Position numbers and translations under genes: made by a program
Part shown: positions 7,838 to 22,190 of the stretch, piece after piece
How the letters are laid out: each line of letters begins with the position of its first letter
Position numbering within the stretch: the stretch's first letter is position 1
Notes under the pieces: generated by a model
Databases searched by the model: none
Told to the model about the DNA's origin: nothing
Seen by the model: only the letters and a program-made list of their open reading frames with translations
NCBI RefSeq assembly: GCF_001306055.1
Contig: NZ_LGHJ01000014.1
Location: 30,001 to 62,000 of the forward strand
Length of the DNA: 32,000 bases
From: Bellilinea caldifistulae
GTDB lineage: Bacteria; Chloroflexota; Anaerolineae; Anaerolineales; Anaerolineaceae
Direction: 5' to 3'

Positions 7838-7924
7838 CTGGATGTGGACGGGATGCGCTTGATTATACTCAATTCACCCAACGATATTGTAAGGTCAAAA
7901 GCCATTCTCGGCAGCAGGATTGCG

Positions 7925-7952
7925 TTGTGAATGAGCGTACATTTGTTATAAT
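7925..7952 (+). promoter_or_regulatory. Candidate sigma70-type promoter with extended -10 for the signalling island
   Basis: TTGTGA (7925-7930), a 16-nt spacer, then TGT-TATAAT (TG at 7944-7945, TATAAT at 7947-7952). It lies 34 nt upstream of the ATG at 7986. Confidence 0.45.
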
Positions 7953-7985
7953 TCTTTCAGACTTTCTCGTCTTCCGAGGCTGCAC

Positions 7986-8801
7986 ATGGCATTACGGGGC
8001 AATCTGCGCGATTTTTCCATCACCCAACTCCTCAATCTGATCAATCTGGCGCATAAAAGCGGTACTCTGGTGATTGAAGGCACCAGCGAAGTTGCTCAGA
8101 TTACCTTTCGGGAAGGAAAACTGGCCTATGCCCAGATTGGCAGCGAGGAGAACGATCTGGCAGCCATCTTGCAGCGCAGCCGTAAAATCACACCCAATCA
8201 GGCGCGGGTCATTCGAGAAAGAACCCGGAAGATGAGCGATAAGGAAGTCGGTCTCTTGTTGATCAATGCCGGTTACCTGACCCAGAAAGATATTTTGGAA
8301 AGTGTACAGAATTATTGTGTGGATGTCGTCCGCCGTTTGTTTACGTGGGTGGAGGGTTCGTTTAACTTCAACCCGGATCAATTAACCCCCGATGGTAAGA
8401 TTCCGGTGCGCATTGACCTGGAGAACCTGATTATCGAGGGTTCACGCCAGTTGCGCGAATGGGAGCAGCTGCAGGAAGAGATCCCCAGTCTGGATATGGC
8501 ACTCAAATTTACCGAGCGCCCGGGTACCAACATCCGCAACCTGAACCTGAGTTTGGAAGAATGGCGGGTGGTGCGTTACGTCAACCCAAAGAATACCATC
8601 CGGCAAATTGCACACGCCACCAAAATGAACGATTTGGAAATCCGCCGGGTGGTATATGCCTTGTTACAAGCCGGGTTAGTGGAACTTGTCCGCCCGGGCG
8701 GTGTGCCGTTGGGCGGAATGGTGCGTCCGTTTCAGACCACCAATAAGCAGGAGCAGGTATCTCTGCTCAACCGTTTGATCAACAAGATTCGCTCGATCTA
8801 A
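7986..8801 (+). CDS. DUF4388 (PATAN)-domain protein with a C-terminal winged-helix-like region
   Basis: The N-terminus LRGNLRDFSITQLLNLINLAHKSGTLVIEG..ITFREGKLAYAQ matches the DUF4388/PATAN signature (G-x-L-x-D-F-s-l-x-x-l-L-q-l-l...k-t-G-x-L). C-terminal segment: EEWRVVRYVNPKNTIRQIAHATKMNDLEIRRVVYALLQAGLVEL. Confidence 0.7.
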   Translation: MALRGNLRDFSITQLLNLINLAHKSGTLVIEGTSEVAQITFREGKLAYAQIGSEENDLAAILQRSRKITPNQARVIRERTRKMSDKEVGLLLINAGYLTQKDILESVQNYCVDVVRRLFTWVEGSFNFNPDQLTPDGKIPVRIDLENLIIEGSRQLREWEQLQEEIPSLDMALKFTERPGTNIRNLNLSLEEWRVVRYVNPKNTIRQIAHATKMNDLEIRRVVYALLQAGLVELVRPGGVPLGGMVRPFQTTNKQEQVSLLNRLINKIRSI

Positions 8802-8824
8802 ACCCTGTTTCCTAAGGAAGCACG

Positions 8825-9364
8825 ATGCAGACAGTCAAAATTGTAGTTACCGGGCCATTCAATGCAGGCAAGACCGAATTCATCCAATCCGTCAGCGAGA
8901 TTGATGTGGTCTCTACCGAACGAAAGATTACCTCGGCCGCCGAAAAGGTGAAGGAAAGCACCACCGTCGCATTGGATTTTGGCCGTATTACGGTTGACGA
9001 TGATCTGGTGTTGTATTTATTTGGAACGCCCGGACAGAAACGGTTCGATTTCATGTGGGAAATCCTCTCCGAAGGGATGCTCGGGTTTGTGGTCATGGTG
9101 GACAGTACCCGCCCGGAAACCTTCCGCGAAGCGCGCACTATTTTGGAAACCTTCCGGGCGTATGCTCCTACCCCTTACGTGGTGGCAGCCAATAAGCAGG
9201 ATTGCAAAGACGCATGGGACATTGAGGATATGCGGCTGGCGCTGCGACTGGATCCTAAAGTTAAACTGCTCTCGTGCGTTGCCAAAGATAAAGAAAATGT
9301 CAAAAAAGTCCTGCTGGAATTGCTCTACAGCATTCTGGAAGAGATGGGGGAGGGTAATTCGTGA
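8825..9364 (+). CDS. Small Ras-superfamily GTPase of the MglA/CvnD type (COG2229-like)
   Basis: P-loop GPFNAGKT (aa 10-17). G3 is FGTPGQ (Thr in place of the Ras Asp, Gln retained), as in MglA/CvnD-type proteins. G4 is NKQD (aa 123-126). 179 aa. AAGGAAG SD precedes the ATG. Confidence 0.85.
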   Translation: MQTVKIVVTGPFNAGKTEFIQSVSEIDVVSTERKITSAAEKVKESTTVALDFGRITVDDDLVLYLFGTPGQKRFDFMWEILSEGMLGFVVMVDSTRPETFREARTILETFRAYAPTPYVVAANKQDCKDAWDIEDMRLALRLDPKVKLLSCVAKDKENVKKVLLELLYSILEEMGEGNS

Positions 9365-9387
9365 GCCAACGGGGGAGTTAAACCAGC

Positions 9388-10191
9388 GTGTCATCCATTA
9401 CGACTGATCAGGGCATCCTTCATTACGAAGTCTACGGTCGCGGCAAACCGGTTATTTTGCTCCACGGCTGGCTGGGATCATGGGGGTTGTGGCAGGAAAC
9501 CATGACCTATCTGGGTCAGTATTACCGCACCTACGCGCTGGATTTTTGGGGTTTTGGTGAATCGGGTAAAAAACTGGATACCTACGAGGTTAGTGAGTTT
9601 GTTTCGCTGGTGGACCAGTTTATGGACAAACTGGGTATCATCAGCGCGCCGCTGGTGGGGCACAGCATGGGGGGTACGGTCAGCCTTTCGGTGGCGTTGC
9701 GCTATCCTCAGCGGGTTGAAAAGGTCGTGATCATCGGCTCACCGGTGGTTGGTTCTTCGCTGGCGCTGCCGCTCAAACTGGCCGGCTGGCGGGTAGTGGC
9801 ATTCCTTTTGTTTAGTTTTTTCCCGGTTTTCCGGGCTGCCATGCGGATTGCTTCGCCGACTATTTGTCGTGACCCGCGATTCCCGGATATGATGGATCGC
9901 GATCTCTCCCGCACCACTCTCGAATCCTTTTTAACCAGCATTGCCTCACTGCGCCGCACCGACCTGCGCAATGAGATTCACCGGATTCAGGTGCCGGTGA
10001 TGGGGATGTTTGGCGACCGGGATAACATTGTCAACCCAAACCAGGGCAAAGCCCTGCAAAAGGGTTTGCCCAACGCGCGCATCGAGCGTTATCCCAATGC
10101 CGGACATTTCATCATGCTCGATGAACCTCGTCCTTTCATGCTCACCTTGAAAGAATTTCTGGATACGCCCTCGTCCAACCCTGTCCCATGA
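9388..10191 (+). CDS. Alpha/beta-fold hydrolase (paralogue 1, intact Ser-Asp-His triad)
   Basis: GTG start with GGGGGAG 10 nt upstream. HGW oxyanion region (VILLHGWLGSW). The nucleophile elbow is GHSMGG (Ser93, codon AGC at 9664-9666). Acid candidate GDRDNIV and His in NAGHFIMLDEP. Confidence 0.85.
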   Translation: MSSITTDQGILHYEVYGRGKPVILLHGWLGSWGLWQETMTYLGQYYRTYALDFWGFGESGKKLDTYEVSEFVSLVDQFMDKLGIISAPLVGHSMGGTVSLSVALRYPQRVEKVVIIGSPVVGSSLALPLKLAGWRVVAFLLFSFFPVFRAAMRIASPTICRDPRFPDMMDRDLSRTTLESFLTSIASLRRTDLRNEIHRIQVPVMGMFGDRDNIVNPNQGKALQKGLPNARIERYPNAGHFIMLDEPRPFMLTLKEFLDTPSSNPVP

Positions 10192-10760
10192 ATCCTTCTC
10201 CGCGTTTGAAATACTCCCCTGACCTTAACAGCCTTATTCTGGAAGGTTTGACCGAGTTTCTCGGTGACCAAAAGCTTGAAATGCTGCTGCAAGCCATGCC
10301 TGCTGATCGGTTGCGCTTTGACCTGGAAAGCCTGCATGAGGCATTACGGGCCGCTTATGGCAGCCAATCGGCTGCCGGGATTCTGGTGCGGGCTGGCAGA
10401 GCAGCCTTTGCGCGGCTGTTGCTGAAATTTGCTGCCGAATTGGGATTTGAAGATCAGGGTTTCCGTCTGCTGGCACCCCGCCGCAAGATGGGGGTGGCTT
10501 TGCAGAATCTGGCAGACTGGCTTCAACGGCAGGGGGCTGGTAGATTTGAGGTGCGGCGTGTGACGAACGGCTGGCAGTGGCTCCATCGGGTTGATTTTGA
10601 AGGTCAGACCGACAACAGAGCGACAATGGCCTGTCCTTTCCTGCTGGGGATGCTGCAAGAATTATCCTACTGGGTCAGCAGCGGCCGTATTCACCCCATC
10701 CGCGAGGAAGCGCATTCCCAAGGCTGCCTGCTGGAAATCGAGTCGAAACCGCTGGATTGA
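10188..10760 (+). CDS. V4R (4-vinyl-reductase)-like small-molecule-binding domain protein
   Basis: Its ATG overlaps the upstream TGA (ATGA at 10188-10191). The C-terminal pattern ...MACPFLLGMLQELSYWVSSGRIHPIREEAHSQGCLLEIE resembles the V4R signature (C-x-f-x-x-G-x-l-x-g...E-x-x-C-x-x-x-G-x-x-x-C-x-F-x-i), with one Cys position changed. Assignment by eye only. Confidence 0.5.
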   Translation: MNPSPRLKYSPDLNSLILEGLTEFLGDQKLEMLLQAMPADRLRFDLESLHEALRAAYGSQSAAGILVRAGRAAFARLLLKFAAELGFEDQGFRLLAPRRKMGVALQNLADWLQRQGAGRFEVRRVTNGWQWLHRVDFEGQTDNRATMACPFLLGMLQELSYWVSSGRIHPIREEAHSQGCLLEIESKPLD

Positions 10761-10769
10761 GAGGACCGG

Positions 10770-12047
10770 ATGCTGAAAATCATTTTACAGTGTCCCCGTT
10801 ACCTGGAACCTTTCAACGAGCGCGCCCGTGATTTGAGAATTTTCAATAAACCATTGTGGCTTCAACAGCGCGATGTGCTGGCGCCTTACACCACCCGCGA
10901 ACTGGAATTGCCCCCCGAAGCGCGCCTGCCGCAAACCGCTGAGCCGTGTATCGTTTACCGTGATAATTTGTTTTTTGACGAGGGCTTTATGCAGGCCTTC
11001 ATGCGGGAAGCCCTGCGCCGGCCGTACCCCTCACGGGCGGCGTTGTCCATCCATGACCCTGCTTTCCGGGAACATTGTTTGCCGCTTTCTACTTCCTATA
11101 CGCCGGCGGGGGATATTTATCTGGCGGATTTGTGGTACTACCCGCGCGGTCCCGAGCCGAGCGCCGAACCACTGGTGGTGGATTTGCAGGCGCGGGAAAT
11201 CGGCTATTACCATGTTCCGACTTATATGGCGAGTGAATCGGGTGATCTGGTCTATCAGGTGCCGCTGCGCAGTCTGATTGCGATTGATTCCTGGGTGCAT
11301 ATTTTCATCGCCGATACGGTGTTTGGCCTGTTTGGTCGCGGGGCGCGTTTTGAAGATCGTCTCAACCGTGATCCTTTCTTCAAACTCAGCATTCTGGCAA
11401 CCGCTTTGTATGAGGGTAAGCAGGTGCTGGAATGTTCTAAACTGGTACGGGTGGGACGCAACTGCTCGATTGACCCTACTGCCATCATTCACGGCCCCAC
11501 CACCATCGGGGATAATGTGACCATCGGGGCCGGGGCGGTGATTGAAAATTGTATCATCGGCGACAATGTCAATGTCTCACAGGGCTGCCAGTTGATGCTT
11601 TCAGTGGTGGGGGATGGCACCTTTCTGCCGTTTCGGGCCTCGTTATTCATGACCACCATCATGGATAACAGCATGGTTGCCCAAAACACCTGCTTGCAGA
11701 TGTGCGTGGTGGGGCGGAATACTTTCATCGGTGCGGGTTCCACCTTTACAGATTACAACCTGATTCCCTCACCCATCCGGGCGCGGGATGCCTACGGCCA
11801 ATTGCAGCCATCCAACCGCCCGGTGCTGGGGGGATGTGTGGGTCACAATTGCCGGATTGGGGCTGGTATGATCGTCTACCCGGCGCGGATGATCGAATCC
11901 GATGTGATTTTGTTCGCTTCCAAAGAACGGCGGGTGATTGACCGGGACATCCGCTATGAGGACAGCGATCACCATCGCTTGAAGGACGGTCATCTGCATC
12001 CACGTTTGTACCCGCGCCCCGGTGAGGCAGGCGTCGAAAGCTGGTGA
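10770..12047 (+). CDS. Left-handed beta-helix (hexapeptide-repeat) protein with a GlmU-like but degenerate N-terminal domain
   Basis: The C-terminal half has consecutive hexapeptide repeats (IHGPTTIGDNVTIGAGAVIENCIIGDNVNVSQGCQL...VVGRNTFIGAGSTF...VGHNCRIGAGMIV). The N-terminal 230 aa (MLKIILQCPRYLEPFNERARDLRIFNKPLW...) occupies the place of a nucleotidyltransferase domain. It lacks an obvious G-x-G-T-R-(x)n-K signature. GAGAGGA SD. Confidence 0.65.
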   Translation: MLKIILQCPRYLEPFNERARDLRIFNKPLWLQQRDVLAPYTTRELELPPEARLPQTAEPCIVYRDNLFFDEGFMQAFMREALRRPYPSRAALSIHDPAFREHCLPLSTSYTPAGDIYLADLWYYPRGPEPSAEPLVVDLQAREIGYYHVPTYMASESGDLVYQVPLRSLIAIDSWVHIFIADTVFGLFGRGARFEDRLNRDPFFKLSILATALYEGKQVLECSKLVRVGRNCSIDPTAIIHGPTTIGDNVTIGAGAVIENCIIGDNVNVSQGCQLMLSVVGDGTFLPFRASLFMTTIMDNSMVAQNTCLQMCVVGRNTFIGAGSTFTDYNLIPSPIRARDAYGQLQPSNRPVLGGCVGHNCRIGAGMIVYPARMIESDVILFASKERRVIDRDIRYEDSDHHRLKDGHLHPRLYPRPGEAGVESW

Positions 12048-12104
12048 GTCACTCCTTAATCCTTACAACTCCCTAACCAGACCGCCTTTGGACGGGTAAT
12101 TTTG

Positions 12105-12133
12105 TTGCCAGAAATGGCGGTTTTGCGTAAGAT
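12105..12133 (+). promoter_or_regulatory. Candidate internal sigma70-type promoter for the REC-GGDEF/kinase sub-operon
   Basis: TTGCCA (12105-12110), a 17-nt spacer, then TAAGAT (12128-12133). This implies a leader of about 100 nt before the ATG at 12241. Confidence 0.35.
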
Positions 12134-12240
12134 TAAGTGTTGTACCCGATTTCCACCGTCTGGATCCCCGGCTGGGCGGAATGGGTTACGCAAGATGCTC
12201 CGGGGGAAAGCCCATGCCTGATCTCTTGAGGGAGGCACCC

Positions 12241-13131
12241 ATGAGTAAAGCCCGCCTGTTGATTGTGGAAGATGACGTGGATATTTCCAACATGCTGCGC
12301 ATTTATTTTACCTCGCAGGGCTATGATGTGGATATTGCCCCACGCGGTTCGGATGCGCTGGAAAAGACCCGTCAGGTCATGCCCCATTTGTTGATTCTGG
12401 ATATCATGCTGCCGGATATTGACGGTTACGAGGTCTGCCGGGTGCTGCGCACCAATACCCGCACCAGCCACATTCCGGTGCTGTTCCTGACCCAGAAGGA
12501 CGAGCGCAGCGATAAACTCAAAGGTCTGGAACTGGGGGCGGACGACTACATCACCAAACCCTTTGATATCGAAGAGCTGAAACTGCGTGTCCAGAATGCC
12601 CTGGCGCGTTCCGAACGGGAAAGCCTGACCGACCCGCAAACCGGCCTCCCCTCCGGCCGGTTGATTGAGGATCAACTGCGCAAATTGATCCGTCAGAACG
12701 ACTGGGCATTTCTGGATATTCGCATCAATCACTTTGAGCCATTCAAGGATGTTTATGGTTTTATTGCCGGCAATGATGTGCTGCGGTTCACCGCCATGTT
12801 GTTGGGCGAAGTGGTGGATGAGCTTGGTACACAAAATGACTTTATCGGCCATGTTGGCGGAGATAACTTTGTCGTTTCCACGACGGCTCAGGCGGGGGCT
12901 GCCATCAAGACCCGCCTGAAAGCACGGTTCAAGGAAGAAGTACTCTCGCATTACAATTTTTTGGACCGTCAGCAGGGTTTTGTGCTGGCTCCGGGTAAAG
13001 ACGGCCAGATGACCCCCACTCCCTTTATGACTTTGGCGGTTGGTTTGGTCTCACCGCTGACCCATCAATTCGCCGATATTCGCGAAATTACCGAGATTGC
13101 TGCCGAAGAACGCCGCCGCGATTCAGTTTAG
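12241..13131 (+). CDS. Response regulator: receiver domain fused to a degenerate GGDEF domain (GGDNF)
   Basis: The start is moved to the ATG at 12241 (MSKARLLIVEDD), with GAGGGAGG at 12228-12235. REC features: DD at 11-12, the phospho-acceptor in LLILDIMLPDIDG (D54), and K in YITKPF. The GGDEF-like domain begins at DPQTGLPSGR. Its signature is GGDNF (codons GGC GGA GAT AAC TTT, 12856-12870), and there is no RxxD I-site (TQND in that position). Confidence 0.85.
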   Translation: MSKARLLIVEDDVDISNMLRIYFTSQGYDVDIAPRGSDALEKTRQVMPHLLILDIMLPDIDGYEVCRVLRTNTRTSHIPVLFLTQKDERSDKLKGLELGADDYITKPFDIEELKLRVQNALARSERESLTDPQTGLPSGRLIEDQLRKLIRQNDWAFLDIRINHFEPFKDVYGFIAGNDVLRFTAMLLGEVVDELGTQNDFIGHVGGDNFVVSTTAQAGAAIKTRLKARFKEEVLSHYNFLDRQQGFVLAPGKDGQMTPTPFMTLAVGLVSPLTHQFADIREITEIAAEERRRDSV

Positions 13132-13152
13132 GGATCGGTCAGGGATACCCGC

Positions 13153-16100
13153 ATGGTGTTTGAAAACCCGCTCATTCTGGGTGTTGTACTGGCAGGCAGC
13201 GGTTTGCTTTTTTGGCTTGCAGCTGCCGGCCTGATTCGTTGGGTATCCCGTTCCCCAAGACCGCACTCGATCCTCGTCCCGGCTGAAGAAGCGGATAATC
13301 CGAACGCCGACCCGATTTTAATTGTGGAAGCCGGTGGAAGGCTGGCGTGGATCAATTCCACGGCCCGGCAGTTGTTTGGCTTGAAGGAAGGCGAATCCGC
13401 CAATCTGGAGGGCCTCTCTCGTAAAATCCGCCCGGCAAACGCGTTGTTGAATTTATGTGCCACAGATGGCCAAACCCGCCTGATAGTTGAAGGTAAGGCC
13501 ATCGAGGCAGCTTCTCAGCGTTTACCGTTTGGTCAGCCGGAATGGAGGTTAATCACCTTTCGCTCTGGAGAAAGCGGCGGGATGATGGGCGCAGCCCAAA
13601 CCGGTCTACTGCCAGCGCAGACCTTGCAGGTTTTCCTGGACCTGACACAGGCCATGGCTGCCAGTCTGGATGTGGAGCAAACCCTGTTCTCCATCCTTGA
13701 CAATCTGGATCGTTTGGTGCCGGCCGATTTGCGCGAGATCAACCTGTACGATGAAGAAAGCCAGACTTTCATCCCCTATCGCATGCTGGCGATGGCGGAT
13801 GGCGAACGCAAACTGCTCCTGGCCAGTGAACGCTACGGCCGGGAGGAGGGTCTTTCGGGGGTCATCGCTGTCTCGCGTCAGCCATTGCTGGTGCCCGATT
13901 TGGAAAAAGCCACCGACTTAAGCACAATCCTTGACCGGCGTAAATATCCGGTTCGTTCATTTCTGGGCGTGCCGTTAGCAATCGGCGAGCAGTTCATCGG
14001 TACCCTTGAGCTGGCTTCCTTTGCCGCAGATGCCTTTCAGCCGCAGGATCGTGATCTGTTGACTTTGATTTCCGGCCAGGTGGCGGTTGCCATTCATAAT
14101 GCATTACTTTACCGGCAGGAACAACGCCGAACCGCCGAGCTGAACGGCCTGGCTCAACTGGCGCAGGCGTTCAGTTCGGTGCGCGATACGCGCGGTCTGT
14201 TCGAGCGTTTGGTCAGCGCCATTCAACCACTCGTGCGGGTACAAATCCTCGGATTTTTGCTTTATAACGAAGCCAGCCGCACGCTTCAGGCTCAGGTGCC
14301 GTTTGCCGGAATTCCCGAACAATTTTTGGAGATGTATCGGATAGCGGTGCAGCCCGGCAGTCCCCTGGAAACCGCTCTGCTGGCTCAGGATGTGCTGATC
14401 AGCGACCATGCCGCAGAAGATGAGCGCTGGATCGAACTGGGATTACAGCCCATTGCGGTTGCTGCCGGCCTGCGGGATACGGTGATGATGCCCCTCGCGG
14501 TCAGCGGGCGGGTACTGGGCTATTTGCAGGCTGCCAATCATTTGCAGGAAGGCAGCAGTTTTAATCAGGATGAATTACATTTGTTGATGATCGTAGCCAA
14601 TCAGGTTGCCCCGATCATTGATAATGCGTCTTTGTTGCAACAATCCCGCCTGCGCGCTCAACGCGCCGAAGGTTTGCGGCGGATTGCCAGCCTGTCCAGT
14701 TCAGCGGCAACCCTGGATGAGATTCTCAAGTTCTCGCTGCAGGAGCTGGTGCGCCTTTTACAGGCCGACCTGGCTGCTGTATTTCTGCTGGATCAGAACC
14801 GGGTTGTCCTGCAATTGCACCGTCCTTCTCAATATGGCGATGCGGGGGAGGTGCCGGAGCGCCTGACCCGCCTGCTGGCGGAGGATGCTCAGTTTCCGTT
14901 TACTTCGGCCGGCAGCCAGCACATCATTCAGCTCAATCAAGCGGTAGAGGAAAAACCGATTGTTCCCTTTTACCAGCAGCTGATTCAATCGTGGAGGATT
15001 GAATCGCTGATTGTCGTGCCGTTGGTGGTACGAGATGAGGGCATTGGTGAAATCTGGATTGCCAGCCGCCAGCCCAACTTTTTTGACCCGGGTGATGTGC
15101 AACTGATGGCAACAGCTGCCGGGCAACTGGCGGGGGTGGTGGAACGCAGTTACCTGCTGATGCAGACGGATGAGACTCTCCGGCGGCGGGTGGAGCAGAT
15201 GACCTCCCTGACCCGCATCACCCGCGAATTAAGCACCTCGCTGGACTTGAAGCACCTGCTGCAACTGGTGTATGACGAAGCCCTGCGTACCACGCGCGCC
15301 GATTGCGGTACCATCCTGTTCTTTGAGCTGGAACAACCACCTGAGGCGACTCCGCAAATTCGCTTTTGGGTGGGCGACCCGCCGCCGTCGCAACTTTCTT
15401 CCCTTGAATTGCAGGTGATTGCCAGCGGAATGGGTTATGTGCTGCGCGATGTGCACAACCCGGATTATTACCTGCCCCACGAAGGCGTGCAGTCGGTGCT
15501 GCTGGTGCCGATTTACCATCAAGACCGGGCCGGCGGACTGATTTGCCTGCATAGCTCGGAGAGGGAACATTTCGATGAATCGGCGATGGACATTGCCCAA
15601 TCATTGGCGGCTCAGGCGACGATTGCGCTTTCCAATGCGGTGCATTACGAAGAACAGACCCGCCGTGGTACTTTACTCAAGCGCCAGTTGGATACCCTCG
15701 CTGAGTTGTATCAGGTTTCACGCTTTTTACGCCCCAATCAACCGCTGGAAAAAGCCTTGGAAGCCATTGCCGAAGCGATTGTGGATGCCACCCCCTTCCG
15801 GGCGGTGTTGATCAGCGTCTATGATCCGGACGGTAATTGTTTGCACCGGGTAGCCCATAAGGGAATTTCGCCTGAGATGTGGGAGGAATTGCGTTCGCGG
15901 GTTCAGCCATGGCGCGGCATATTGCAGTTATGCCAGCCGGAATATCGTGTGGGGGATGTGTACTTCATCCCCGCCGACAAGCAGCCGCTGGTGCCGGAGG
16001 AAGTTCACACCATTACCGTTTTGCCCGGCAGTGAACAGCAGGGCGAGTATTTATGGAATGCTGATGATTTTCTGCTTGCGCCGTTATATGACTCCAATGG

Positions 16101-19100
16101 GGAGCCGCTGGGGTTGATCAGCGTGGACGACCCGCGCGATGCCCGGCGCCCGGACCGTCCGACACTGGATGCGCTGGAAATTTTTGCGGTGCAGGCTTCG
16201 CTGCTGATTGAAAACCACCGTCATCTGGAAAAAACCCAGACCGAATTACGGCAATTGCTTGAAGAAAATCAACAATTGCGTACCTCGGCAGAGGCAGCCC
16301 GCCAGCAAATCCCGCAGTTGCTTCAGCGTCAGGTGGAGGATCTGCTCGAAATTCGCCGCCTGTTTCGGCAGGTGGAACGGGTGCGTGCCGGATTGGAAAT
16401 TGCCGCACAGGCCAGTTTGCAGCAAAATACCCGGGCTGCGCTGATCAGCATGGGACGTGCCTTGCTGGAACATTTTGCCTTGTCCATGGCGCTGGTTGCC
16501 GAGGGGGATGCTTCCGGCGGACGTCTGATCGAGGTAATCGGCGAAATCCCTCCCGGCAGCAATCCCGAAGCGTTGTTCGGTCAGCGCAATCCACTGCGTC
16601 AGGCTTTACTGGATGGCCGTCTCATCCTTTCGCCGCAGGTGGAAGAGGATCCTATCTGGCGCGGAACTCCGCTGTTGAACGGCTTGGGCAGTCGCAGTTT
16701 TGTGGTCTTCCCGTTTGAAATTTCCTCGGAGCACCGGGCGGCGGTGATGGTTTGCGGCGCAGAACCGATGGAAGCCTTTGAAGCCGAGGACGCTCAGGTT
16801 TACGAACAACTGTGCCGGCAGGTGAGTATCAGTCTGCAGAACCTCGAATTGCTTGCTGAAACCCGCCGGCGGTTGGGAGATGTTAATTTACTGCTGGAAT
16901 TTAGCCGCAAGTTGGGCAGTCTGGATACCGGTAGCATTCTGCAGAGTCTGCTGGAAAGCGCCTTACAAGTGCTGCCATCCGCCGATGCCGGCTGGGTGGG
17001 GTTGATCGAGGAAAATGGCGGCAGGATTGTGCCCATGCATGCAAGCGGTTACACGGATGTCGAGGCTTTGCTGCAAATTCGCTACGATCCGGAGCGGACA
17101 CCACCGCCATTGCCCCTGCGGGTTGTGCAATCGGGTAATCCACTGAGGGTAAATGAGATTCATTTCGCCGCAGATTACAACCTCTCCGCCGAGGATTTGA
17201 TACGATATCAGAAAGCCAGCCGCGCAAGACTTCCGATCTCGGTACTGGTCTTGCCAATCCGCCTTGGTGAACGCTGTATGGGCGTGCTGGTGTTGGAGAA
17301 TTTCGATCAGGCCGAGGCTTTCAGCGCCGAGCATGAAAGTCTGGCGCTCTCGCTCGCTCAGCAGGCTGCACTGGCGCTGGAAAATGCCCGTCTGTTCCGC
17401 TCCATTCAACAGCGGACGGCTCAGTTACAGGCGTTAACGCAGGTCTCTTCGACGATTACTTCCAGCCTGCAAACCGATGCACTGATCGCCAGCCTGCTGG
17501 AGCAATTGCAAAAGGTGGTGCCATTCGATACGGCAACCCTCTGGCTGCGCAAAGGTGATTGGATCGAAGTCGCTGCTGCGCGCGGTTTTGATGACGATCA
17601 GGCGCGGATCGGATTGACCGCGCGGGTTGAGGATAGTATCTTGTTTCAGGAAATGAGCCGTTCAGGTCTGGCCATTTCGGTTCCGGATGTCCGCGCTGAT
17701 GCCCGTTTTACCCGCCTGCTGGTGCCGGATTATCTTTCCTGGCTGGGGATACCCCTGATTGCCAAATCCGAATTGATTGGGGTGATCGCGCTGGAGAAAC
17801 GCGACCCTGATTTTTATACGGAGGATTACATTCAGGCGGCGATGACCTTTGCCGGGCAGGCAGCGGTAGCCTTAGAAAATGCGCGCCTGTTCGAGGAAAG
17901 TCAGCGCCGGGCTGCCGAACTCGATCAACGTTCCAGCCGTCTGGCTTTGCTCAACCGCTTCTCGGCTGATTTAGGCGCATCCCTGGAGGTGCTCCCCATT
18001 CTCCAACTGACCTGTGAGCGGCTGGCGGATGCGTTGGATGTTACACGGGTTGGAGCGGTGTTGATTGACGATCAGGAGCGCCTGCTTTTGGTCACGGAAA
18101 GTCCACCGGTTGAGGATGCCCTCCCCATAACCCTGCCGGCAATCCCGCTCATCCAGCAATTACGCGATTCGCAGGGCGTGTTCAACACCGAAGATGCGGA
18201 AGCAGAAACTGGATTGGCTGAATGGCGGACGGCGTTCCTCGCCAGCCGTAAGGTGCGCGCCCTGGTGATCATCCCCCTGATCAGCGGGCAGGAAATTTCT
18301 GGCTGGCTGATGCTGCAATCCGAGCAGAAAAAGCGGTTCACCGCCCAGGAAATTGAATTGGTGCGGACGATCAGCAATCAGGCGGCAATTGCCATGCAAA
18401 ATGCCCGCCGTTTTGAAGAAATCCGTACCCTCAAAGAGGATTTGGAGCGCCGGGTAGAAGAACGCACGGCGGCGCTGAGTCGGGAGCATCACAAATCCCA
18501 GACGATGCTCAAAGTGACCACCGAACTTTCGGCCAGTCTGGATATTCATCAAGTCCTCAGCCGTTCGTTGAGTGTTTTGAATGAAGCCCTGCAAATTGAT
18601 GAAAGTCTGATCGTCCGCGATGCCGGACGGGTCGTTGTTCGGGCCGGTCAACTTCTGGAAAGTTCGGCCTCACCCGAAGGCCATACCCTCGAACACCAGA
18701 TTCACCAGTATCTGATGCGGGTCCGAAAACCGCTGTGGATTGAGGATGTCCATCTGGATTCACGCTGGCAAACCGATCCGCATCAACCACCGGCATACCG
18801 CAGTGTTGCAGCCATTCCCCTGATTCTGGGCGAAGAATCGCTCGGTACACTTATGCTGCTCCATCGCGAAAAGGGGCATTTTCAAGCGGAGCAGACCGGG
18901 TTGTTGGAAGGGATTGCCCGCCAAATTGCCATCACCCTCAATAATGCCGAATTGTTTGGTTTAATCCGCGATCAGGCTGAAAACCTGGGTGCCATGCTGC
19001 GTGATCAGCAAATCGAGGCATCCCGCTCGCGCGGTATTCTGGAAGCCGTTGCAGATGGCGTGATTGTCACGGACGTCAATCAGATCATTACGTTGTTCAA

Positions 19101-20091
19101 TGCTTCTGCCGAAGCCATTTTGGAGGTAAACAGCAACAAGGTGATCGGTAAGCCGCTCGAACAGATTGCATCGTCGTTCGAGGGGAGTGGCAGTCAGTGG
19201 ATGACGGTGATTCAGCGCTGGTCGGAGGGAAGTTATCCCTCGCCGGGCGAAGCCTACGCCGAACAGATCACCCTCAATAACGGGCGGGTGGTCGCGCTGC
19301 ATCTGGCGCCGGTCATCTGGCGCAATGAATTTCTGGGTACCGTATCCATCCTGCGGGATATGACCCACCAGGTGCAGGTGGAACGTCTGAAATCGGAGTT
19401 CATCGCCAATGTCTCCCACGAACTGCGTACCCCCCTGACTTCAATTAAGGGATATACCGATATTTTGTTGATGGGCGCTGGTGGCGAGTTGACCGAAAAA
19501 CAGGTTCACTTCATTGAAATTTTACGAGAAAACGCAGAGCGCTTGAACATACTGGTTAATGACCTGCTGGATGTCTCCCGCATTCAATCCGGTAAAGTCA
19601 TGCTTGAGGCTCAGCCGCTGGATTTGCGCCTTCTGGCCGAAGAGATTTTGGGCGAAATGCGTCAGCGTTCGGTGGAAACCGGAAAACCGATGCAGTTTTT
19701 ACTGGAAGCGCCGCCTTCCTTGCCGCATGCGCGTGGAGACCGCGAACGCACCCTGCAAATTTTACGCAGTCTGGTCAGTAACGGCTTCAATTACACTCCC
19801 GAAAACGGTCAGGTGAAGGTACGGATTTCGGCTCGCGAACATGAGGTACAGGTAGATGTCATTGACAATGGGATTGGCATTCCGCCCAAAGACCATTCCC
19901 GCATTTTCGACCGTTTTTACCGTGGTGAAAGTCCTCTGGTCATGGCAACCCCCGGCACCGGTTTGGGACTGGCGCTTTCCAAAATTCTGGTCGAAATGCA
20001 GGAAGGCCGCATCTGGTTTTCTTCCACCGGGGTACCCGGTGAGGGCAGTGTATTTTCCTTTACTCTGCCAATCTACCCTTTGGAAGGTTGA
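13153..20091 (+). CDS. Giant sensor histidine kinase (2312 aa): N-terminal TM helix, PAS-like region, ten tandem GAF domains, PAS, HisKA, HATPase_c
   Basis: TM helix LILGVVLAGSGLLFWLAAAGLI (aa 7-28). PAS-like segment ILIVEAGGRLAWINSTARQLFGL. Ten units each end in a helix of the form (Q)xAxAxxNAxL(F/Y), near aa 320, 495, 668, 832, 1022, 1232, 1414, 1580, 1752 and 1934. PAS at about aa 1950-2070 (GILEAVADGVIVTD...). H-box SEFIANVSHELRTPLTSIKGY, with His2089 at codon CAC 19417-19419. N-box LVSNGFNYTP, G1 DNGIGIP, G2 GTGLGLALSK. AGGGA SD before the ATG. Confidence 0.92.
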   Translation: MVFENPLILGVVLAGSGLLFWLAAAGLIRWVSRSPRPHSILVPAEEADNPNADPILIVEAGGRLAWINSTARQLFGLKEGESANLEGLSRKIRPANALLNLCATDGQTRLIVEGKAIEAASQRLPFGQPEWRLITFRSGESGGMMGAAQTGLLPAQTLQVFLDLTQAMAASLDVEQTLFSILDNLDRLVPADLREINLYDEESQTFIPYRMLAMADGERKLLLASERYGREEGLSGVIAVSRQPLLVPDLEKATDLSTILDRRKYPVRSFLGVPLAIGEQFIGTLELASFAADAFQPQDRDLLTLISGQVAVAIHNALLYRQEQRRTAELNGLAQLAQAFSSVRDTRGLFERLVSAIQPLVRVQILGFLLYNEASRTLQAQVPFAGIPEQFLEMYRIAVQPGSPLETALLAQDVLISDHAAEDERWIELGLQPIAVAAGLRDTVMMPLAVSGRVLGYLQAANHLQEGSSFNQDELHLLMIVANQVAPIIDNASLLQQSRLRAQRAEGLRRIASLSSSAATLDEILKFSLQELVRLLQADLAAVFLLDQNRVVLQLHRPSQYGDAGEVPERLTRLLAEDAQFPFTSAGSQHIIQLNQAVEEKPIVPFYQQLIQSWRIESLIVVPLVVRDEGIGEIWIASRQPNFFDPGDVQLMATAAGQLAGVVERSYLLMQTDETLRRRVEQMTSLTRITRELSTSLDLKHLLQLVYDEALRTTRADCGTILFFELEQPPEATPQIRFWVGDPPPSQLSSLELQVIASGMGYVLRDVHNPDYYLPHEGVQSVLLVPIYHQDRAGGLICLHSSEREHFDESAMDIAQSLAAQATIALSNAVHYEEQTRRGTLLKRQLDTLAELYQVSRFLRPNQPLEKALEAIAEAIVDATPFRAVLISVYDPDGNCLHRVAHKGISPEMWEELRSRVQPWRGILQLCQPEYRVGDVYFIPADKQPLVPEEVHTITVLPGSEQQGEYLWNADDFLLAPLYDSNGEPLGLISVDDPRDARRPDRPTLDALEIFAVQASLLIENHRHLEKTQTELRQLLEENQQLRTSAEAARQQIPQLLQRQVEDLLEIRRLFRQVERVRAGLEIAAQASLQQNTRAALISMGRALLEHFALSMALVAEGDASGGRLIEVIGEIPPGSNPEALFGQRNPLRQALLDGRLILSPQVEEDPIWRGTPLLNGLGSRSFVVFPFEISSEHRAAVMVCGAEPMEAFEAEDAQVYEQLCRQVSISLQNLELLAETRRRLGDVNLLLEFSRKLGSLDTGSILQSLLESALQVLPSADAGWVGLIEENGGRIVPMHASGYTDVEALLQIRYDPERTPPPLPLRVVQSGNPLRVNEIHFAADYNLSAEDLIRYQKASRARLPISVLVLPIRLGERCMGVLVLENFDQAEAFSAEHESLALSLAQQAALALENARLFRSIQQRTAQLQALTQVSSTITSSLQTDALIASLLEQLQKVVPFDTATLWLRKGDWIEVAAARGFDDDQARIGLTARVEDSILFQEMSRSGLAISVPDVRADARFTRLLVPDYLSWLGIPLIAKSELIGVIALEKRDPDFYTEDYIQAAMTFAGQAAVALENARLFEESQRRAAELDQRSSRLALLNRFSADLGASLEVLPILQLTCERLADALDVTRVGAVLIDDQERLLLVTESPPVEDALPITLPAIPLIQQLRDSQGVFNTEDAEAETGLAEWRTAFLASRKVRALVIIPLISGQEISGWLMLQSEQKKRFTAQEIELVRTISNQAAIAMQNARRFEEIRTLKEDLERRVEERTAALSREHHKSQTMLKVTTELSASLDIHQVLSRSLSVLNEALQIDESLIVRDAGRVVVRAGQLLESSASPEGHTLEHQIHQYLMRVRKPLWIEDVHLDSRWQTDPHQPPAYRSVAAIPLILGEESLGTLMLLHREKGHFQAEQTGLLEGIARQIAITLNNAELFGLIRDQAENLGAMLRDQQIEASRSRGILEAVADGVIVTDVNQIITLFNASAEAILEVNSNKVIGKPLEQIASSFEGSGSQWMTVIQRWSEGSYPSPGEAYAEQITLNNGRVVALHLAPVIWRNEFLGTVSILRDMTHQVQVERLKSEFIANVSHELRTPLTSIKGYTDILLMGAGGELTEKQVHFIEILRENAERLNILVNDLLDVSRIQSGKVMLEAQPLDLRLLAEEILGEMRQRSVETGKPMQFLLEAPPSLPHARGDRERTLQILRSLVSNGFNYTPENGQVKVRISAREHEVQVDVIDNGIGIPPKDHSRIFDRFYRGESPLVMATPGTGLGLALSKILVEMQEGRIWFSSTGVPGEGSVFSFTLPIYPLEG
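13615..18957 (+). other. Array of ten GAF-domain-coding units inside the kinase gene, split 5+5 by a coiled-coil-like insert
   Basis: Approximate unit boundaries in aa: 155-320, 330-495, 505-670, 680-835, 845-1025, then a heptad-like Q/R/E/L-rich linker (1025-1090, TQTELRQLLEENQQLRTSAEAARQQIPQLLQRQVEDLLEIRRLFRQVERVRAGLE), then 1090-1235, 1240-1415, 1420-1582, 1590-1755 and 1780-1935. Boundaries were estimated by eye from the recurring C-terminal helices. Confidence 0.7.
19384..20076 (+). other. HisKA + HATPase_c catalytic core of the giant kinase
   Basis: H, N, G1 and G2 boxes are all present and canonical (see the CDS entry), so the kinase is predicted to be catalytically competent. Confidence 0.85.
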
Positions 20092-20097
20092 GTGGAA

Positions 20098-20478
20098 ATG
20101 GCGAAAATTTTAGTGGCTGAGGATGAAAAGGATATCCGTGACTTGCTCTCATTTACCTTGCAATTTGCCGGTCACACTGTGATTACCGTGAACAACGGGG
20201 AGGAAGCCTGGCAGGCTGCTCCCAGCGTCATGCCGGATTTGATTTTAATGGATGTGCGCATGCCGCGAATGACCGGTTATGAGGCCTGTCAACGCATCAA
20301 AGCCGACCCGCAAACCGCTCACATTCCGGTGGTGTTTCTCTCTGCCAAAGGGCAGGAAGCCGAGATTCAACAAGGCCTGCAAGCCGGCGCCAGCGAGTAC
20401 CTGCTGAAGCCCTTTGCGCCGGATGAGCTGACCCGCCGGGTGGCAGAATTGCTGGAACGCTTTGCCCAAAAGAAGTAA
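20098..20478 (+). CDS. Single-domain CheY-like response regulator
   Basis: The ATG at 20098 (MAKILVAEDEKD) lies 6 nt after the kinase TGA (20089-20091), with GGAAGG 10 nt upstream. The track's GTG at 20092 is an alternative. Phospho-acceptor in LILMDVRMPRMTG. Conserved S (FLSAKG) and K (YLLKPF). No output domain. Confidence 0.9.
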   Translation: MAKILVAEDEKDIRDLLSFTLQFAGHTVITVNNGEEAWQAAPSVMPDLILMDVRMPRMTGYEACQRIKADPQTAHIPVVFLSAKGQEAEIQQGLQAGASEYLLKPFAPDELTRRVAELLERFAQKK

Positions 20479-20480
20479 CC

Positions 20481-21266
20481 ATGAGCGCAATCCTGATTGA
20501 GCAAGATATCATTCACTATGAAGTACTGGGACGCGGCCGCCCGATTCTCTTTTTACATTCGTGGGTCGGTTCGTGGCGCTACTGGATTCCGATGATGCAG
20601 GCCGCTTCGGTCGGTTATCGGGCTTACGCGCTGGATTTGTACGGTTTTGGCGATAGCGCCAAGAATCGCCAGTACTCGCTGGAAGCGCAGGCCGGTCTGG
20701 TTGAGGCTTTTCTGGAAAAACTGGGGATTGGCAGGGTGGCGATTGTTGGACACGGATTGGGGGCACTGGTTGGCCTGCTGTTTGCGCTGCGCCATCCGGG
20801 GGTGGTGGATCGCGTGATGGCAGTCGGTTTTCCGCTGGATGAAACCATGATCAGCGGGCGGCTACGCAATACCTCACCGGTTGATCTGGCAGAAAGCATG
20901 CTGGGCAAGACGCCGCTCAGTGAGCCGGTTACTACCGATGCCGCCAAGACCGATCCGGCGGCGATTGTCGGTTCACTCAGTGATGTGGTGCTGCAATATG
21001 CAGGTGGTTTATGGGCGAAGTTAAACACGGCCTGTCTGCTGGTGCACGGCAACCGCGATGCACTGGTGCAGCCACCACGGCTGGACCAGATTGAAAAATT
21101 GCCGGAACACGCCCACCTGATTCAATTTGAAGAAGGCGGTCATTTTGTCATGCTGGACGACAGCAGTAAATTCAACCGGCTGATGAACGATTTTCTGAGC
21201 CTGCCTTCGGGAGAAAGCCCGCAGCAATTGCAGTTGAAGGAAGAATGGAAGCGCCGCGTGCGCTGA
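20481..21266 (+). CDS. Alpha/beta-fold hydrolase paralogue 2, nucleophile Ser replaced by Gly (predicted pseudo-hydrolase)
   Basis: It starts 2 nt after the CheY stop. The N-terminal ~110 aa align clearly with the 9388 gene (ILIEQDIIHYEVLGRGRPILFLHSWVGSWRYW vs ITTDQGILHYEVYGRGKPVILLHGWLGSWGLW; YALDLYGFGDS vs YALDFWGFGES). The nucleophile elbow reads GHGLGA (Gly92, codon GGA at 20754-20756) instead of GHSMGG. The Asp (HGNRDALV) and His (GGHFVMLDD) positions are retained. Confidence 0.8.
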   Translation: MSAILIEQDIIHYEVLGRGRPILFLHSWVGSWRYWIPMMQAASVGYRAYALDLYGFGDSAKNRQYSLEAQAGLVEAFLEKLGIGRVAIVGHGLGALVGLLFALRHPGVVDRVMAVGFPLDETMISGRLRNTSPVDLAESMLGKTPLSEPVTTDAAKTDPAAIVGSLSDVVLQYAGGLWAKLNTACLLVHGNRDALVQPPRLDQIEKLPEHAHLIQFEEGGHFVMLDDSSKFNRLMNDFLSLPSGESPQQLQLKEEWKRRVR

Positions 21267-21323: not shown

Positions 21324-22190
21324 TTATGTCAGTTGTGGTTTCACCAGTTCCTGAAAAGTTTTCAGACAGCGTTCGCGTTCTCCCTGCGTTTCGGCGTTAC
21401 AGGAGAAAATCACCACATCCACCCCGGCCTGGCGGTAAGCCTGTAACTGTCCGGCAATTTGCTCCGGCGAACCGCTGAAGGGCTGATCCGGTTGGGGATT
21501 GGAGGAAAACTCAAGCCGGGCGCGCATACACACCATAAAAGGGCGGTTGAGCAACAACGGGCGCACCGATTCGAGTGCGGAGCGGATTTGTTCGACTGGC
21601 TGAGTGTTGGGATGCCAGCCGTCGGCGTAATACACCGCTCGTTTGAGCGCGGTGGGCGAGTCACCGGCGACCCAGATTGGCGGTCCGCCGGGTTGAACGG
21701 GGGGCGGCGAAAGCACAACCTTTTCAAACCGGTAGTAAGTGCCGGAAAAGGAAATTACTTTGCCGCCCCGCCAGAGAGTACGCAACACTTTCAAGGCTTC
21801 GTCCATGCGCTTGCCGCGGTTGTGAAAATCGTAACCCAAATTGGCATATTCCCCCTCTGACCAGCCAATGCCGGCGGCCAGAATCACGCGTCCACCGCTG
21901 AGTGCGTCCAGCGTGGCAAGCTCTTTGCCGATTTCCAGCGGGTTACGCTGAGGCAGCACCAGCGCCGAAATTCCCAACCGAATCCGTCGCGTGCTGGCAG
22001 CCAGATAACTGAGGGTGGTGATGGCTTCGAAGATATGGCCGAATCGCTCGGCATCCGCCTGTGGGAGCGCCAGATGATCGGTGACCCAAATCGAGTCAAA
22101 ACCCAATTCTTCGGCTGCCAGCGCGGTATCGAGGATGCTCAGACGGGTTGCGTTTTTGCCGTAGGTCGGCAGGACGACGCCAAACTTCAT
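21324..22190 (-). CDS. Luciferase-like monooxygenase (LLM) family, F420-dependent-oxidoreductase-like
   Basis: MKFGVVLPTYG...LGFDSIWVTDHL...RIRLGISALVLPQRNPLEIGKELATLDALSGGRVILAAGIGW is the typical LLM-class TIM-barrel pattern. Its ATG lies 3 nt after the M32 stop (TAA-GCG-ATG), so the two genes are probably co-translated. Confidence 0.8.
   Translation of the reverse strand: MKFGVVLPTYGKNATRLSILDTALAAEELGFDSIWVTDHLALPQADAERFGHIFEAITTLSYLAASTRRIRLGISALVLPQRNPLEIGKELATLDALSGGRVILAAGIGWSEGEYANLGYDFHNRGKRMDEALKVLRTLWRGGKVISFSGTYYRFEKVVLSPPPVQPGGPPIWVAGDSPTALKRAVYYADGWHPNTQPVEQIRSALESVRPLLLNRPFMVCMRARLEFSSNPQPDQPFSGSPEQIAGQLQAYRQAGVDVVIFSCNAETQGERERCLKTFQELVKPQLT

Follow-up and report, generated by a model that had tools for sequence, protein, structure and literature searches.

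The nine-gene cluster and its proteins

We analyzed a 32,000-nt stretch of the Bellilinea caldifistulae genome (contig NZ_LGHJ01000014.1, positions 30,001 to 62,000; hereafter the window), in which nine consecutive plus-strand genes (g1 to g9, window positions 7986 to 21266) encode a small GTPase, a large histidine kinase, two receiver proteins, and five further proteins. The cluster is a modular, functionally linked signalling system and not one fixed nine-gene block or a mobile island. Its genes are as follows.

7986-8801, + strand: g1, PATAN (DUF4388) protein, 271 amino acids (aa)
8825-9364, + strand: g2, MglA-family Group 5-type small GTPase, 179 aa
9388-10191, + strand: g3, alpha/beta hydrolase with an intact Ser-Asp-His triad, 267 aa
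10188-10760, + strand: g4, divergent V4R-family protein (H-NOX/V4R/Bet3 fold), 190 aa
10770-12047, + strand: g5, nucleotidyltransferase-like N-domain without GxGTR plus a left-handed beta-helix (LbH) C-domain, 425 aa
12241-13131, + strand: g6, receiver plus degenerate GGDEF domain (GGDNF), 296 aa
13153-20091, + strand: g7, membrane-anchored multi-GAF histidine kinase, 2312 aa
20098-20478, + strand: g8, stand-alone CheY-like receiver, 126 aa
20481-21266, + strand: g9, pseudo-hydrolase and paralog of g3, 261 aa

The nine open reading frames (ORFs) and their gaps of 23, 23, -4, 9, 193, 21, 6, and 2 nt reproduce those of an earlier sequence-only reading of this DNA. A mechanical ORF list gives longer starts for two ORFs, at 12181 and 20092; we place the start of g6 at 12241 because of a conserved GGGAGG ribosome-binding site and ortholog alignments. 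All nine domain assignments of the sequence-only reading hold, eight of them confirmed directly by profile search (Pfam/NCBIfam) and that of g4 by other means, while the number of GAF domains in the kinase had to be corrected.

The GTPase, g2, matches Pfam ATP_bind_1 (E = 6.7e-20) and Ras (2.5e-12), as well as MglA structures (2.6e-6). Its nucleotide-binding motifs are GPFNAGKT (G1), STTV (G2), GTPGQ (G3), and NKQD (G4). Among 24 aligned sequences (the window and 23 orthologs), GPFNAGKT, NKQD, and C-V-A are kept, and G3 invariably reads GTPGQ (24/24), not DxxGQ or TVPGQ. The G2 region is xTTVA[LM]DFG in all orthologs, with Thr replacing the intrinsic arginine finger beside the G2 Thr. GTPGQ combined with Thr instead of the intrinsic arginine finger is the signature of MglA Groups 2 to 5 (PMC4316618); because both GTPGQ and the Thr-Thr of G2 fit this definition, g2 is placed within these groups and, judged by its motifs, is an MglA-family GTPase of Group 5 type. 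Identity across all relatives is 81 to 100%.

Immediately upstream, by 23 nt, lies the PATAN gene, and this pair recurs in every related locus with enough sequence except two (L025 and L027; loci are described below). The g1 product carries PF14332 (DUF4388/PATAN) at 8.8e-27, is 65 to 97% identical in relatives, and has a weak winged-helix-like signal at its C terminus (HTH_9, 1.6e-4, below cutoff). Pfam finds no receiver (REC) domain in g1, which therefore differs from PatA-type proteins, in which PATAN is fused to a C-terminal REC; the REC domains sit on g6 and g8 instead. Neither Roadblock/LC7 (MglB, CvnB) nor DUF742 (CvnC) was matched by any of 23 scanned proteins (the nine plus 14 other window ORFs). 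The window thus holds no cognate MglB/Roadblock gene of the kind that accompanies MglA Groups 2 to 5, and no CvnB or CvnC gene of the kind that stands beside CvnA and CvnD in a conservon, in keeping with the earlier remark that the conservon and MglA/MglB/RomR systems use other partner sets.

The kinase, g7, has nine solid GAF domains and a marginal tenth, followed by PAS, HisKA (SHELRTPL, 8.9e-21), and HATPase (7.7e-26) domains. The description as a kinase with 10 GAF domains was therefore right in kind and slightly generous in number; it had also not noted an N-terminal transmembrane helix. Orthologs range from 1204 to 2314 aa and vary in length solely with the number of GAF domains, the array growing and shrinking between lineages (ortholog coordinates: L010, 11710-15324; L007, 2383-8304; L012, 13052-18976; L034, 12320-19264). 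In L016 (12897-14618), the kinase ORF has only 573 aa, corresponds in alignment to g7 residues 1 to 524, and lacks the kinase core; either the gene is truly truncated or its GAF repeats were collapsed during assembly. Of the two receivers, g6 combines Response_reg (5.5e-28) with GGDEF (4e-10), both by Pfam, whereas g8 is REC only (Response_reg, 6.1e-30). The residues DD...D...T...K are conserved in both: the receiver Asp, Thr, and Lys are kept in g6, and the phospho-acceptor residues of g8 are kept in nine sequences. The GGDEF motif of g6 is degenerate in 14/14 sequences (GGDNF, GGDSF, GGSHF, GGENF, or GSDSF), and no RxxD I-site is present, the corresponding position reading TQND; on these grounds we rejected a reading as an active diguanylate cyclase. 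As read from its domains, with an H-box kinase core and phospho-acceptor receivers, this half of the cluster is a predicted two-component phosphorelay.

The g4 protein had been called V4R-like. The window sequence itself has no Pfam or NCBIfam match, and a search of PDB chains with its profile returned nothing above noise (E > 0.5). A 12-sequence AlphaFold model (predicted local distance difference test score [pLDDT] of 76; predicted template modelling score of 0.78) was compared by Foldseek and matched H-NOX domains (E = 1e-4; template modelling [TM] score of 0.57 to 0.59), V4R-containing MopR/PoxR sensor domains, and the Bet3/TRAPP subunits 2c0j, 7b6d, and 3cue (E = 0.013 to 0.017; TM score of 0.49 to 0.59). 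Two g4 orthologs exceed the gathering score of Pfam V4R (PF02830, 31 bits), namely those in L007 (49.5 bits) and L010 (44.9 bits), and five more lie just under it (20.6 to 29.6 bits). The V4R assignment is thus supported by the modelled fold and by the orthologs above the cutoff. Profile search places g4 in a family of 467 representative clusters of roughly 190 to 210 aa. The wider family shows a CxxC...C...E..C...C pattern like the V4R zinc site, but proteins of the Bellilinea clade lack the CxxC and one further Cys common in the family, leaving only C149 and C180, which suggests that the metal site was lost in this clade. H-NOX-type heme sensing is unlikely because no His is invariant in the 40-sequence family alignment, whose only invariant columns are G64, G70, G154, and W162; the C-terminal Y-W-V-S-S-G-R also does not fit the H-NOX YxSxR motif. 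We accordingly rejected the reading of g4 as an H-NOX heme sensor, there being no conserved His as a candidate heme ligand. Public names of some orthologs in this cluster look wrong: the g4 ortholog in Bellilinea caldifistulae is named "type VI secretion system baseplate subunit TssF," and g5 orthologs carry the name "multidrug transporter."

The g3 protein is a serine alpha/beta hydrolase (Abhydrolase_1, 9.5e-33, by Pfam) with the full Ser-Asp-His triad; GHSMGG, the second Asp of GDRDN, and AGHF are kept across 18 aligned orthologs. The triad is incomplete in g9 (Abhydrolase_1, 1.3e-23), in which the nucleophile Ser is replaced by Gly (GHGLGA) in 7/7 orthologs, with Asp and His retained. The two are full-length paralogs (29% identity, E = 4e-41). 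In the PDB, both are closest to generic members of the haloperoxidase, epoxide hydrolase, and C-C hydrolase families, and the BchO model gives g3 a weak score (3.3e-13), far short of its cutoff. The hydrolase-type receptors RsbQ-RsbP (Bacillus) and D14/KAI2 (plants) are similar to the present case in that an alpha/beta hydrolase lies inside a signalling operon and a noncatalytic paralog is part of the system; no specific affinity of g3 or g9 to RsbQ or D14/KAI2 was seen among the PDB matches. That a hydrolase and a pseudo-hydrolase bracket the cluster, as had been proposed, is true of g9, which closes it, whereas g3 is only the third gene, so the bracket is a loose one.

The C-terminal half of g5 is a left-handed beta-helix (Hexapep, 3.7e-15, with LbH_EIF2B and GMPPB_C, by Pfam). 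Length is exactly 425 aa in 110 of the 120 homologs listed and 424 to 428 aa in the rest, with 76 to 98% identity. The N-domain, which starts MLKIILQCPRYLEPFNE, lacks the GxGTR nucleoside triphosphate-binding loop and shows weak fold matches to RmlA, KdsB, CobY, and GMPPA/B (E = 0.016 to 0.09); the structural model has low confidence overall (pLDDT of 57), with values of 72 to 91 for residues 1 to 130. NCBIfam enzyme matches are all far below cutoff. The GlmU arrangement of an N-terminal G-x-G-T-R and a C-terminal LbH is hence present only in its second part. Because of the missing GxGTR and the weak nucleotidyltransferase likeness, we read g5, with weak support, as a scaffold of GlmU/GMPPA/eIF2B-gamma type in which catalysis has probably been lost.

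Conservation, selection, and transcription units

We assembled 35 related loci (L numbers), of which 4 were genomic, 24 were metagenomic and came from a scan with an 8-sequence alignment of distant g4 proteins, and 7 came from exact-protein look-ups. A genome scan with an alignment of close g4 proteins returned four near relatives only and carries little information on breadth. The nine proteins and the flanking proteins were mapped onto the 35 loci, and clustering of g1 at 90% identity gave 15 lineages, including the window's own. The arrangements found were as follows.

Full nine-gene order: six lineages (the window group, L004, L012, L016, L029, and Longilinea arvoryzae L034)
g1 to g7, or g4/g5-g6-kinase, to the contig end: L032, L033, L023, and L022
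g1-g2-g3-g4-g6-kinase-REC, without g5; kinase of 1204 aa with about four GAFs: L010
g1-g2-g4-kinase-REC, without g3, g5, and g6: L007, and L011 in part
PATAN-GTPase-hydrolase-LbH, dehydrogenase, REC-GGDEF, two extra genes, kinase; without g4: L031
Genes 1 to 5 without the phosphorelay: three lineages (L005/L006, L017-L021, and Anaerolinea L035)
V4R gene alone beside the helicase/DagK flank: L025 and L027

Genes 1 to 5 stand in order in every long locus except L010 (no g5), L031 (no g4), and L007/L011 (no g3, g5, or g6), and the smallest recurring core consists of PATAN, GTPase, and V4R. A multi-GAF kinase and a receiver adjoin the GTPase genes in 11 of the 14 informative lineages, some of them rearranged; this adjacency survives three rearrangements, in L007 (g1-g2-g4-kinase-REC), L010 (g5 lost), and L031 (g4 lost, genes added). 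The sequence-only reading had proposed, as a check, to count genomes in which at least five of the nine genes recur in the same order and had viewed the nine as one functional unit. The outcome is mixed: at least five do recur in order in essentially every long locus, yet the two halves can separate; likewise, the link of kinase and receiver to the GTPase genes in 11 of 14 lineages speaks for a single functional unit, whereas the three lineages with genes 1 to 5 alone and the hairpin and promoter that divide the cluster speak against one discrete, obligate unit.

Several loci deserve separate description. In L025 (9956-10561) and L027, a lower-GC relative, the lone V4R gene is followed by genes for thiamine pyrophosphokinase and an ABC transporter. 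Between its LbH and kinase genes, L031 has gained a Shikimate_DH-like gene, a gene for a 257-aa protein of no family, and one for a separate 316-aa GAF protein (12766-13851 and 14934-16689). In L033 (9153-20540, on a 1.17-Mb contig), every cluster gene is fragmented; since the fragments are still 80 to 88% identical to the window proteins, sequencing frameshifts are likelier than decay. In L005 (7224-8386), an insertion sequence element (rve integrase plus HTH_Tnp_1) stands in place of dagK directly upstream of the cluster, and the g1 promoter block is intact.

Ratios of nonsynonymous to synonymous substitution rates (dN/dS) were calculated against the four closest relatives, at distances where synonymous sites are saturated (dS of about 0.6 to 2.6).

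g2 (GTPase): dN/dS 0.000-0.017
g1, g5, and g6: dN/dS 0.01-0.05 (g1, 0.02-0.05)
g8: dN/dS 0.02-0.09
g3: dN/dS 0.03-0.07
g7: dN/dS 0.06-0.10
Flanking genes: dN/dS 0.05-0.22
g4 (V4R): dN/dS 0.25-0.29, the fastest-evolving gene of the cluster

Over larger distances, the GTPase remains 81 to 91% identical, compared with 41 to 59% for the flanks and 22 to 35% for g4. From these dN/dS and identity values it follows that the signalling proteins are under stronger constraint than the housekeeping proteins beside them. That dN/dS of the GTPase is close to zero even where synonymous sites are saturated suggests a central cellular role for it in these filamentous anaerobes, which are abundant in digesters and sediments. 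The V4R protein, although functional, evolves faster by roughly 10-fold or more, as would be expected of an input that determines specificity or of a peripheral part.

Promoters and a terminator were sought by phylogenetic footprinting because consensus scans performed at chance level: the promoter scan found 8 sites against 8.1 in shuffled sequence, and the terminator scan did no better than chance. The following elements were distinguished.

7925-7952, + strand: promoter P1 of genes 1 to 5, TTGTGA, 16 nt, TATAAT, with the extended -10 TGTTATAAT at 7944-7952
12105-12133, + strand: internal promoter P2 of genes 6 to 9, TTGCCA, 17 nt, TAAGAT; 9/12 in the scan
12081-12104, + strand: terminator-like hairpin at the end of unit 1, a short GC hairpin plus U-run
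7887-7894, no strand assigned: 8-mer TTGTAAGG, about 57 nt upstream of the g1 -10; candidate operator
12061-12068, no strand assigned: CCTTACAA, the reverse complement of TTGTAAGG, 14 nt past the g5 stop and 37 nt before the P2 -35

P1 is the best match of the consensus scan (10/12 plus TG), and the block around its extended -10, TTTGTTATAATTC (7942-7954), does not vary among six of the seven loci aligned, only L023 differing, although flanking proteins in these loci share just 50 to 60% identity. P2 is kept in L001-L004 and L012, and closely similar versions occur in L022 and L032. The two promoters proposed earlier at these sites are therefore phylogenetically conserved, although the consensus scan as a whole finds no more sites than shuffled sequence does. 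In the hairpin, the stems differ in sequence and pairing is retained among L001, L002, L004, and L012 (covariation). Because this covarying hairpin with its U-run and the conserved P2 lie between g5 and g6, we read the cluster as two putative transcription units, g1 to g5 (unit 1) and g6 to g9 (unit 2), with possible read-through. A whole-window Rfam scan gave no match, so the 193-nt gap contains no riboswitch of a known Rfam family.

The 8-mer occurs three times in the window, against 0.64 expected, the third copy lying inside the kinase gene (16961-16968). TTGTAAGG is found at the same distance from g1 in L002-L006, L012, and L016, and CCTTACAA before P2 is kept in L001-L003 and L012, with one mismatch in L004. 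The upstream copy belongs to the g1 promoter, since it persists in L005 beside a transposase gene instead of dagK. The 8-mer may be an operator common to both units. Another conserved block, GATTATAC (7861-7868), reads TATAAT on the minus strand and is probably the -10 of a divergent dagK promoter.

On both sides the cluster is bounded by minus-strand genes identified by profile matches:

Left flank, - strand: DagK/YegS, 6899-7837, then Helicase_C_3
Right flank, - strand: luciferase-like oxidoreductase (LLM), 21324-22190, then M32 carboxypeptidase

Domain scans agree with the earlier identification of these as opposite-strand housekeeping genes (DagK on the left, LLM oxidoreductase on the right). 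Other scanned ORFs of the window encode ferritin, rhodanese, aminotransferase, isocitrate dehydrogenase, and similar proteins. The GC content of the cluster (0.51 to 0.575) is no different from that of the rest of the window, and GC skew is flat too, which makes the region a gene cluster and not a compositional island. The word "island," used of it before, is apt for a cluster of genes but not for a compositionally distinct or acquired segment, given the flat composition and the syntenic flanks.

A working model and its alternatives

We think it somewhat probable that the region represents a form of the MglA Group 5/PATAN switch elaborated specifically in Anaerolineae and made up of two adjacent, co-oriented, and probably co-regulated units. 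Under such a scheme, the V4R protein and the hydrolase would read cytoplasmic small-molecule status on the GTPase side, and the GAF array would do so on the kinase side. The kinase would phosphorylate both receivers, and a receiver would then act in trans on the PATAN adaptor and the GTPase, a step modelled on two precedents, the cyanobacterial PATAN-REC fusion and the Myxococcus response regulators that act on MglA. The GTP/GDP state of the GTPase would set the activity or location of the PATAN output, for which the best candidate would be the envelope, motor, or division machinery of the filament, although we hold this last step with low confidence. A transcriptional output is also possible in view of the weak winged-helix signal of g1 and the shared 8-mer.

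Several observations weigh against this model. Three lineages, cultured Anaerolinea among them, have unit 1 alone and so either do without the phosphorelay or encode it elsewhere, and in many loci the flanks are syntenic too, so part of the adjacency is plain vertical inheritance. The core itself varies, g4 being lost in L031 and the GTPase genes in L025 and L027, which keep the V4R gene. In the window genome the hairpin is weak, its fold not being significant against shuffles and being unlisted by the terminator scan; the g5 model is poor (pLDDT of 57), and its fold matches are weak (E > 0.01). No type IV pilus or division gene lies within the window. The linkage counts cover loci collected through g4 relatives and exact-protein look-ups. 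Our analysis shows the identities of the proteins, the state of their active sites, the strength of selection, the linkage of the genes, and the conservation of cis-elements, whereas the protein-protein contacts, ligands, and output of the model are inferred.

The same facts bear on the possibility that there are two independent systems here, a GTPase/PATAN/V4R operon and a GAF-kinase two-component operon, that are neighbours through vertically inherited gene order within the Anaerolineaceae. Unit 2 with its own conserved promoter, the terminator-like hairpin between the units, the occurrence of unit 1 alone (L005, L017-21, and Anaerolinea L035), and the synteny of the helicase/DagK and LLM/M32 flanks would all be accounted for in this way. 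Passive inheritance fits less well with the kinase and REC genes remaining beside the GTPase genes after gene loss (L007, L010, and L011) and insertion (L031), with the persistence of the cluster where the left flank changes (L032 and L035), with an identical 8-mer upstream of both promoters, and with the division of the hydrolase and its pseudo-hydrolase paralog between the units. On this evidence, we regard two independent systems as unlikely, while granting the idea an appreciable chance of being right. Less probable again, and in our judgement quite improbable, is that unit 1 is mainly a small-molecule or envelope metabolic operon, comprising a hydrolase, a GlmU-like transferase, and a BchJ-like V4R carrier, which the GTPase and two-component system only regulate. 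The complete triad of g3, its weak, far-below-cutoff BchO score, the likeness of g5 to GlmU, GMPPB, and RmlA-type enzymes, and the binding of hydrophobic ligands by V4R/H-NOX fold proteins (PMC10933270) would suit such an operon; yet the g5 N-domain lacks GxGTR, no other biosynthetic gene is conserved in the cluster, minimal variants dispense with g3 and g5 while keeping PATAN, GTPase, and V4R, and it is the GTPase and PATAN proteins, more than the enzymes, that are most strongly constrained.

We assign next to no probability to a mobile or anti-phage defence island acquired by horizontal transfer. The opposite-strand flanks do look island-like, a transposase adjoins the cluster in L005, and PADLOC gave weak matches. 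However, these matches are to generic receiver domains only, with no other defence family among them, and on that ground we rejected a defence island; horizontal transfer was rejected on composition and synteny, GC content and skew being flat across the window and the chromosomal context being the same across loci whose flanking proteins are 41 to 59% identical. The extreme purifying selection also argues against an island.

A further, more specific idea concerns the V4R protein, which might act directly on the nucleotide state of the MglA-like GTPase, possibly gated by a ligand, and so replace the missing MglB. It shares its fold with Bet3/TRAPPC3, part of the exchange factor that acts on Rab in eukaryotes. 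The idea rests on the presence of the V4R gene in the GTPase operon of every lineage with enough sequence except L031. We rate it as speculative and distinctly doubtful because g4 is fast evolving and dispensable in at least one lineage. Small GTPase genes of Asgard archaea are generally found outside operons with Roadblock, longin, or TRAPPC3/V4R genes (2024, PMC10933270), and Podar et al. (2008) do not mention a GTPase context for V4R. If true, prokaryotes would here provide their first conserved operon in which a V4R-fold protein is paired with a Ras-like GTPase, as well as a functional antecedent of TRAPP-type regulation, testable in culturable Anaerolinea, Longilinea, and Bellilinea. We consider the V4R-GTPase operon link the most interesting lead from this cluster.

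Relation to known GTPase and PATAN systems

Bacterial Ras-like GTPases are understood almost solely via Myxococcus MglA and, in part, via the actinobacterial conservons, and the catalytic and regulatory logic of MglA Groups 2 to 5, which have no arginine finger, is still to be settled. The present cluster offers a widely conserved Group 5 system in cultured organisms, with candidate regulators in one operon, no Roadblock GTPase-activating protein, and recurrent wiring to a canonical kinase and two receivers. It also places a V4R/TRAPPC3-fold gene in a small-GTPase operon, a combination reported to be lacking in Asgard archaea, which bears on the origin of TRAPP-like regulation. The g4 protein shares the fold of V4R/H-NOX/Bet3 proteins but stands alone at 190 aa, with no conserved candidate heme ligand; TRAPP has a longin partner and g4 has none, and in contrast to the Asgard homologs, g4 is in a GTPase operon.

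The conservon and Myxococcus MglA had been named as the established precedents, but closer ones were already catalogued: MglA Group 5 GTPases next to PATAN, among them ANT_06780 of Anaerolinea thermophila (179 aa), listed as Group 5 with a PATAN neighbour (PMC4316618 Table S2). The same table gives 176-aa PATAN>MglA pairs without MglB in Chloroflexus, Roseiflexus, and Herpetosiphon and an orphan MglB elsewhere in the A. thermophila genome. As in those modules, g2 is a single-domain GTPase with GTPGQ, Thr in place of the arginine finger, and a PATAN gene immediately upstream. Group 5 loci are mostly MglB>PATAN>MglA (PMC4316618), whereas the window cluster lacks MglB, and V4R, hydrolase, nucleotidyltransferase-LbH, and multi-GAF kinase partners, the last with two receivers, are unmentioned in that 2015 survey (Wuichet and Sogaard-Andersen, PMC4316618). 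Makarova et al. 2006 is a further reference for such modules.

The Streptomyces conservon CvnA-D and the mycobacterial Mfp conservon (MglA Group 2) resemble the cluster in that a GTPGQ GTPase is clustered with a histidine kinase-type protein, the two being thought to form one signalling unit. They differ in having CvnB Roadblock and CvnC DUF742 proteins and no response regulator, whereas here a canonical HisKA/HATPase kinase occurs with receivers. Myxococcus MglA (Group 1) is tied to the response regulators RomR, FrzZ, AglZ, and FrzS and so provides a model for receiver-GTPase coupling, but its G3 motif is TVPGQ, its arginine finger is intrinsic, its partners are encoded away from mglA, and PATAN, V4R, and hydrolase are not among them.

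In cyanobacterial Tax systems, PATAN-REC fusions with a paired REC-only regulator are the rule, and PATAN, as the output domain, binds PilB1 and PilC of the pilus motor (bioRxiv 10.1101/2021.06.11.447907). The Tax/Pix PatA-type systems thus share with the present cluster a kinase, two receivers, and a PATAN domain as output, which is predicted here. They use a CheA kinase, in contrast to the GAF-array HisKA kinase of the cluster, in which PATAN is unfused, carries another kind of C-terminal region, and has a GTPase as its partner. The literature that we searched on DUF4388/GTPase, V4R/GTPase, and Anaerolineae small GTPases does not describe the cluster. What was already known is the pairing of a Group 5 GTPase with PATAN in Anaerolinea; what is new here, as far as that literature and the 2015 survey go, is the partner set of V4R protein, hydrolase, nucleotidyltransferase-LbH protein, and multi-GAF kinase.

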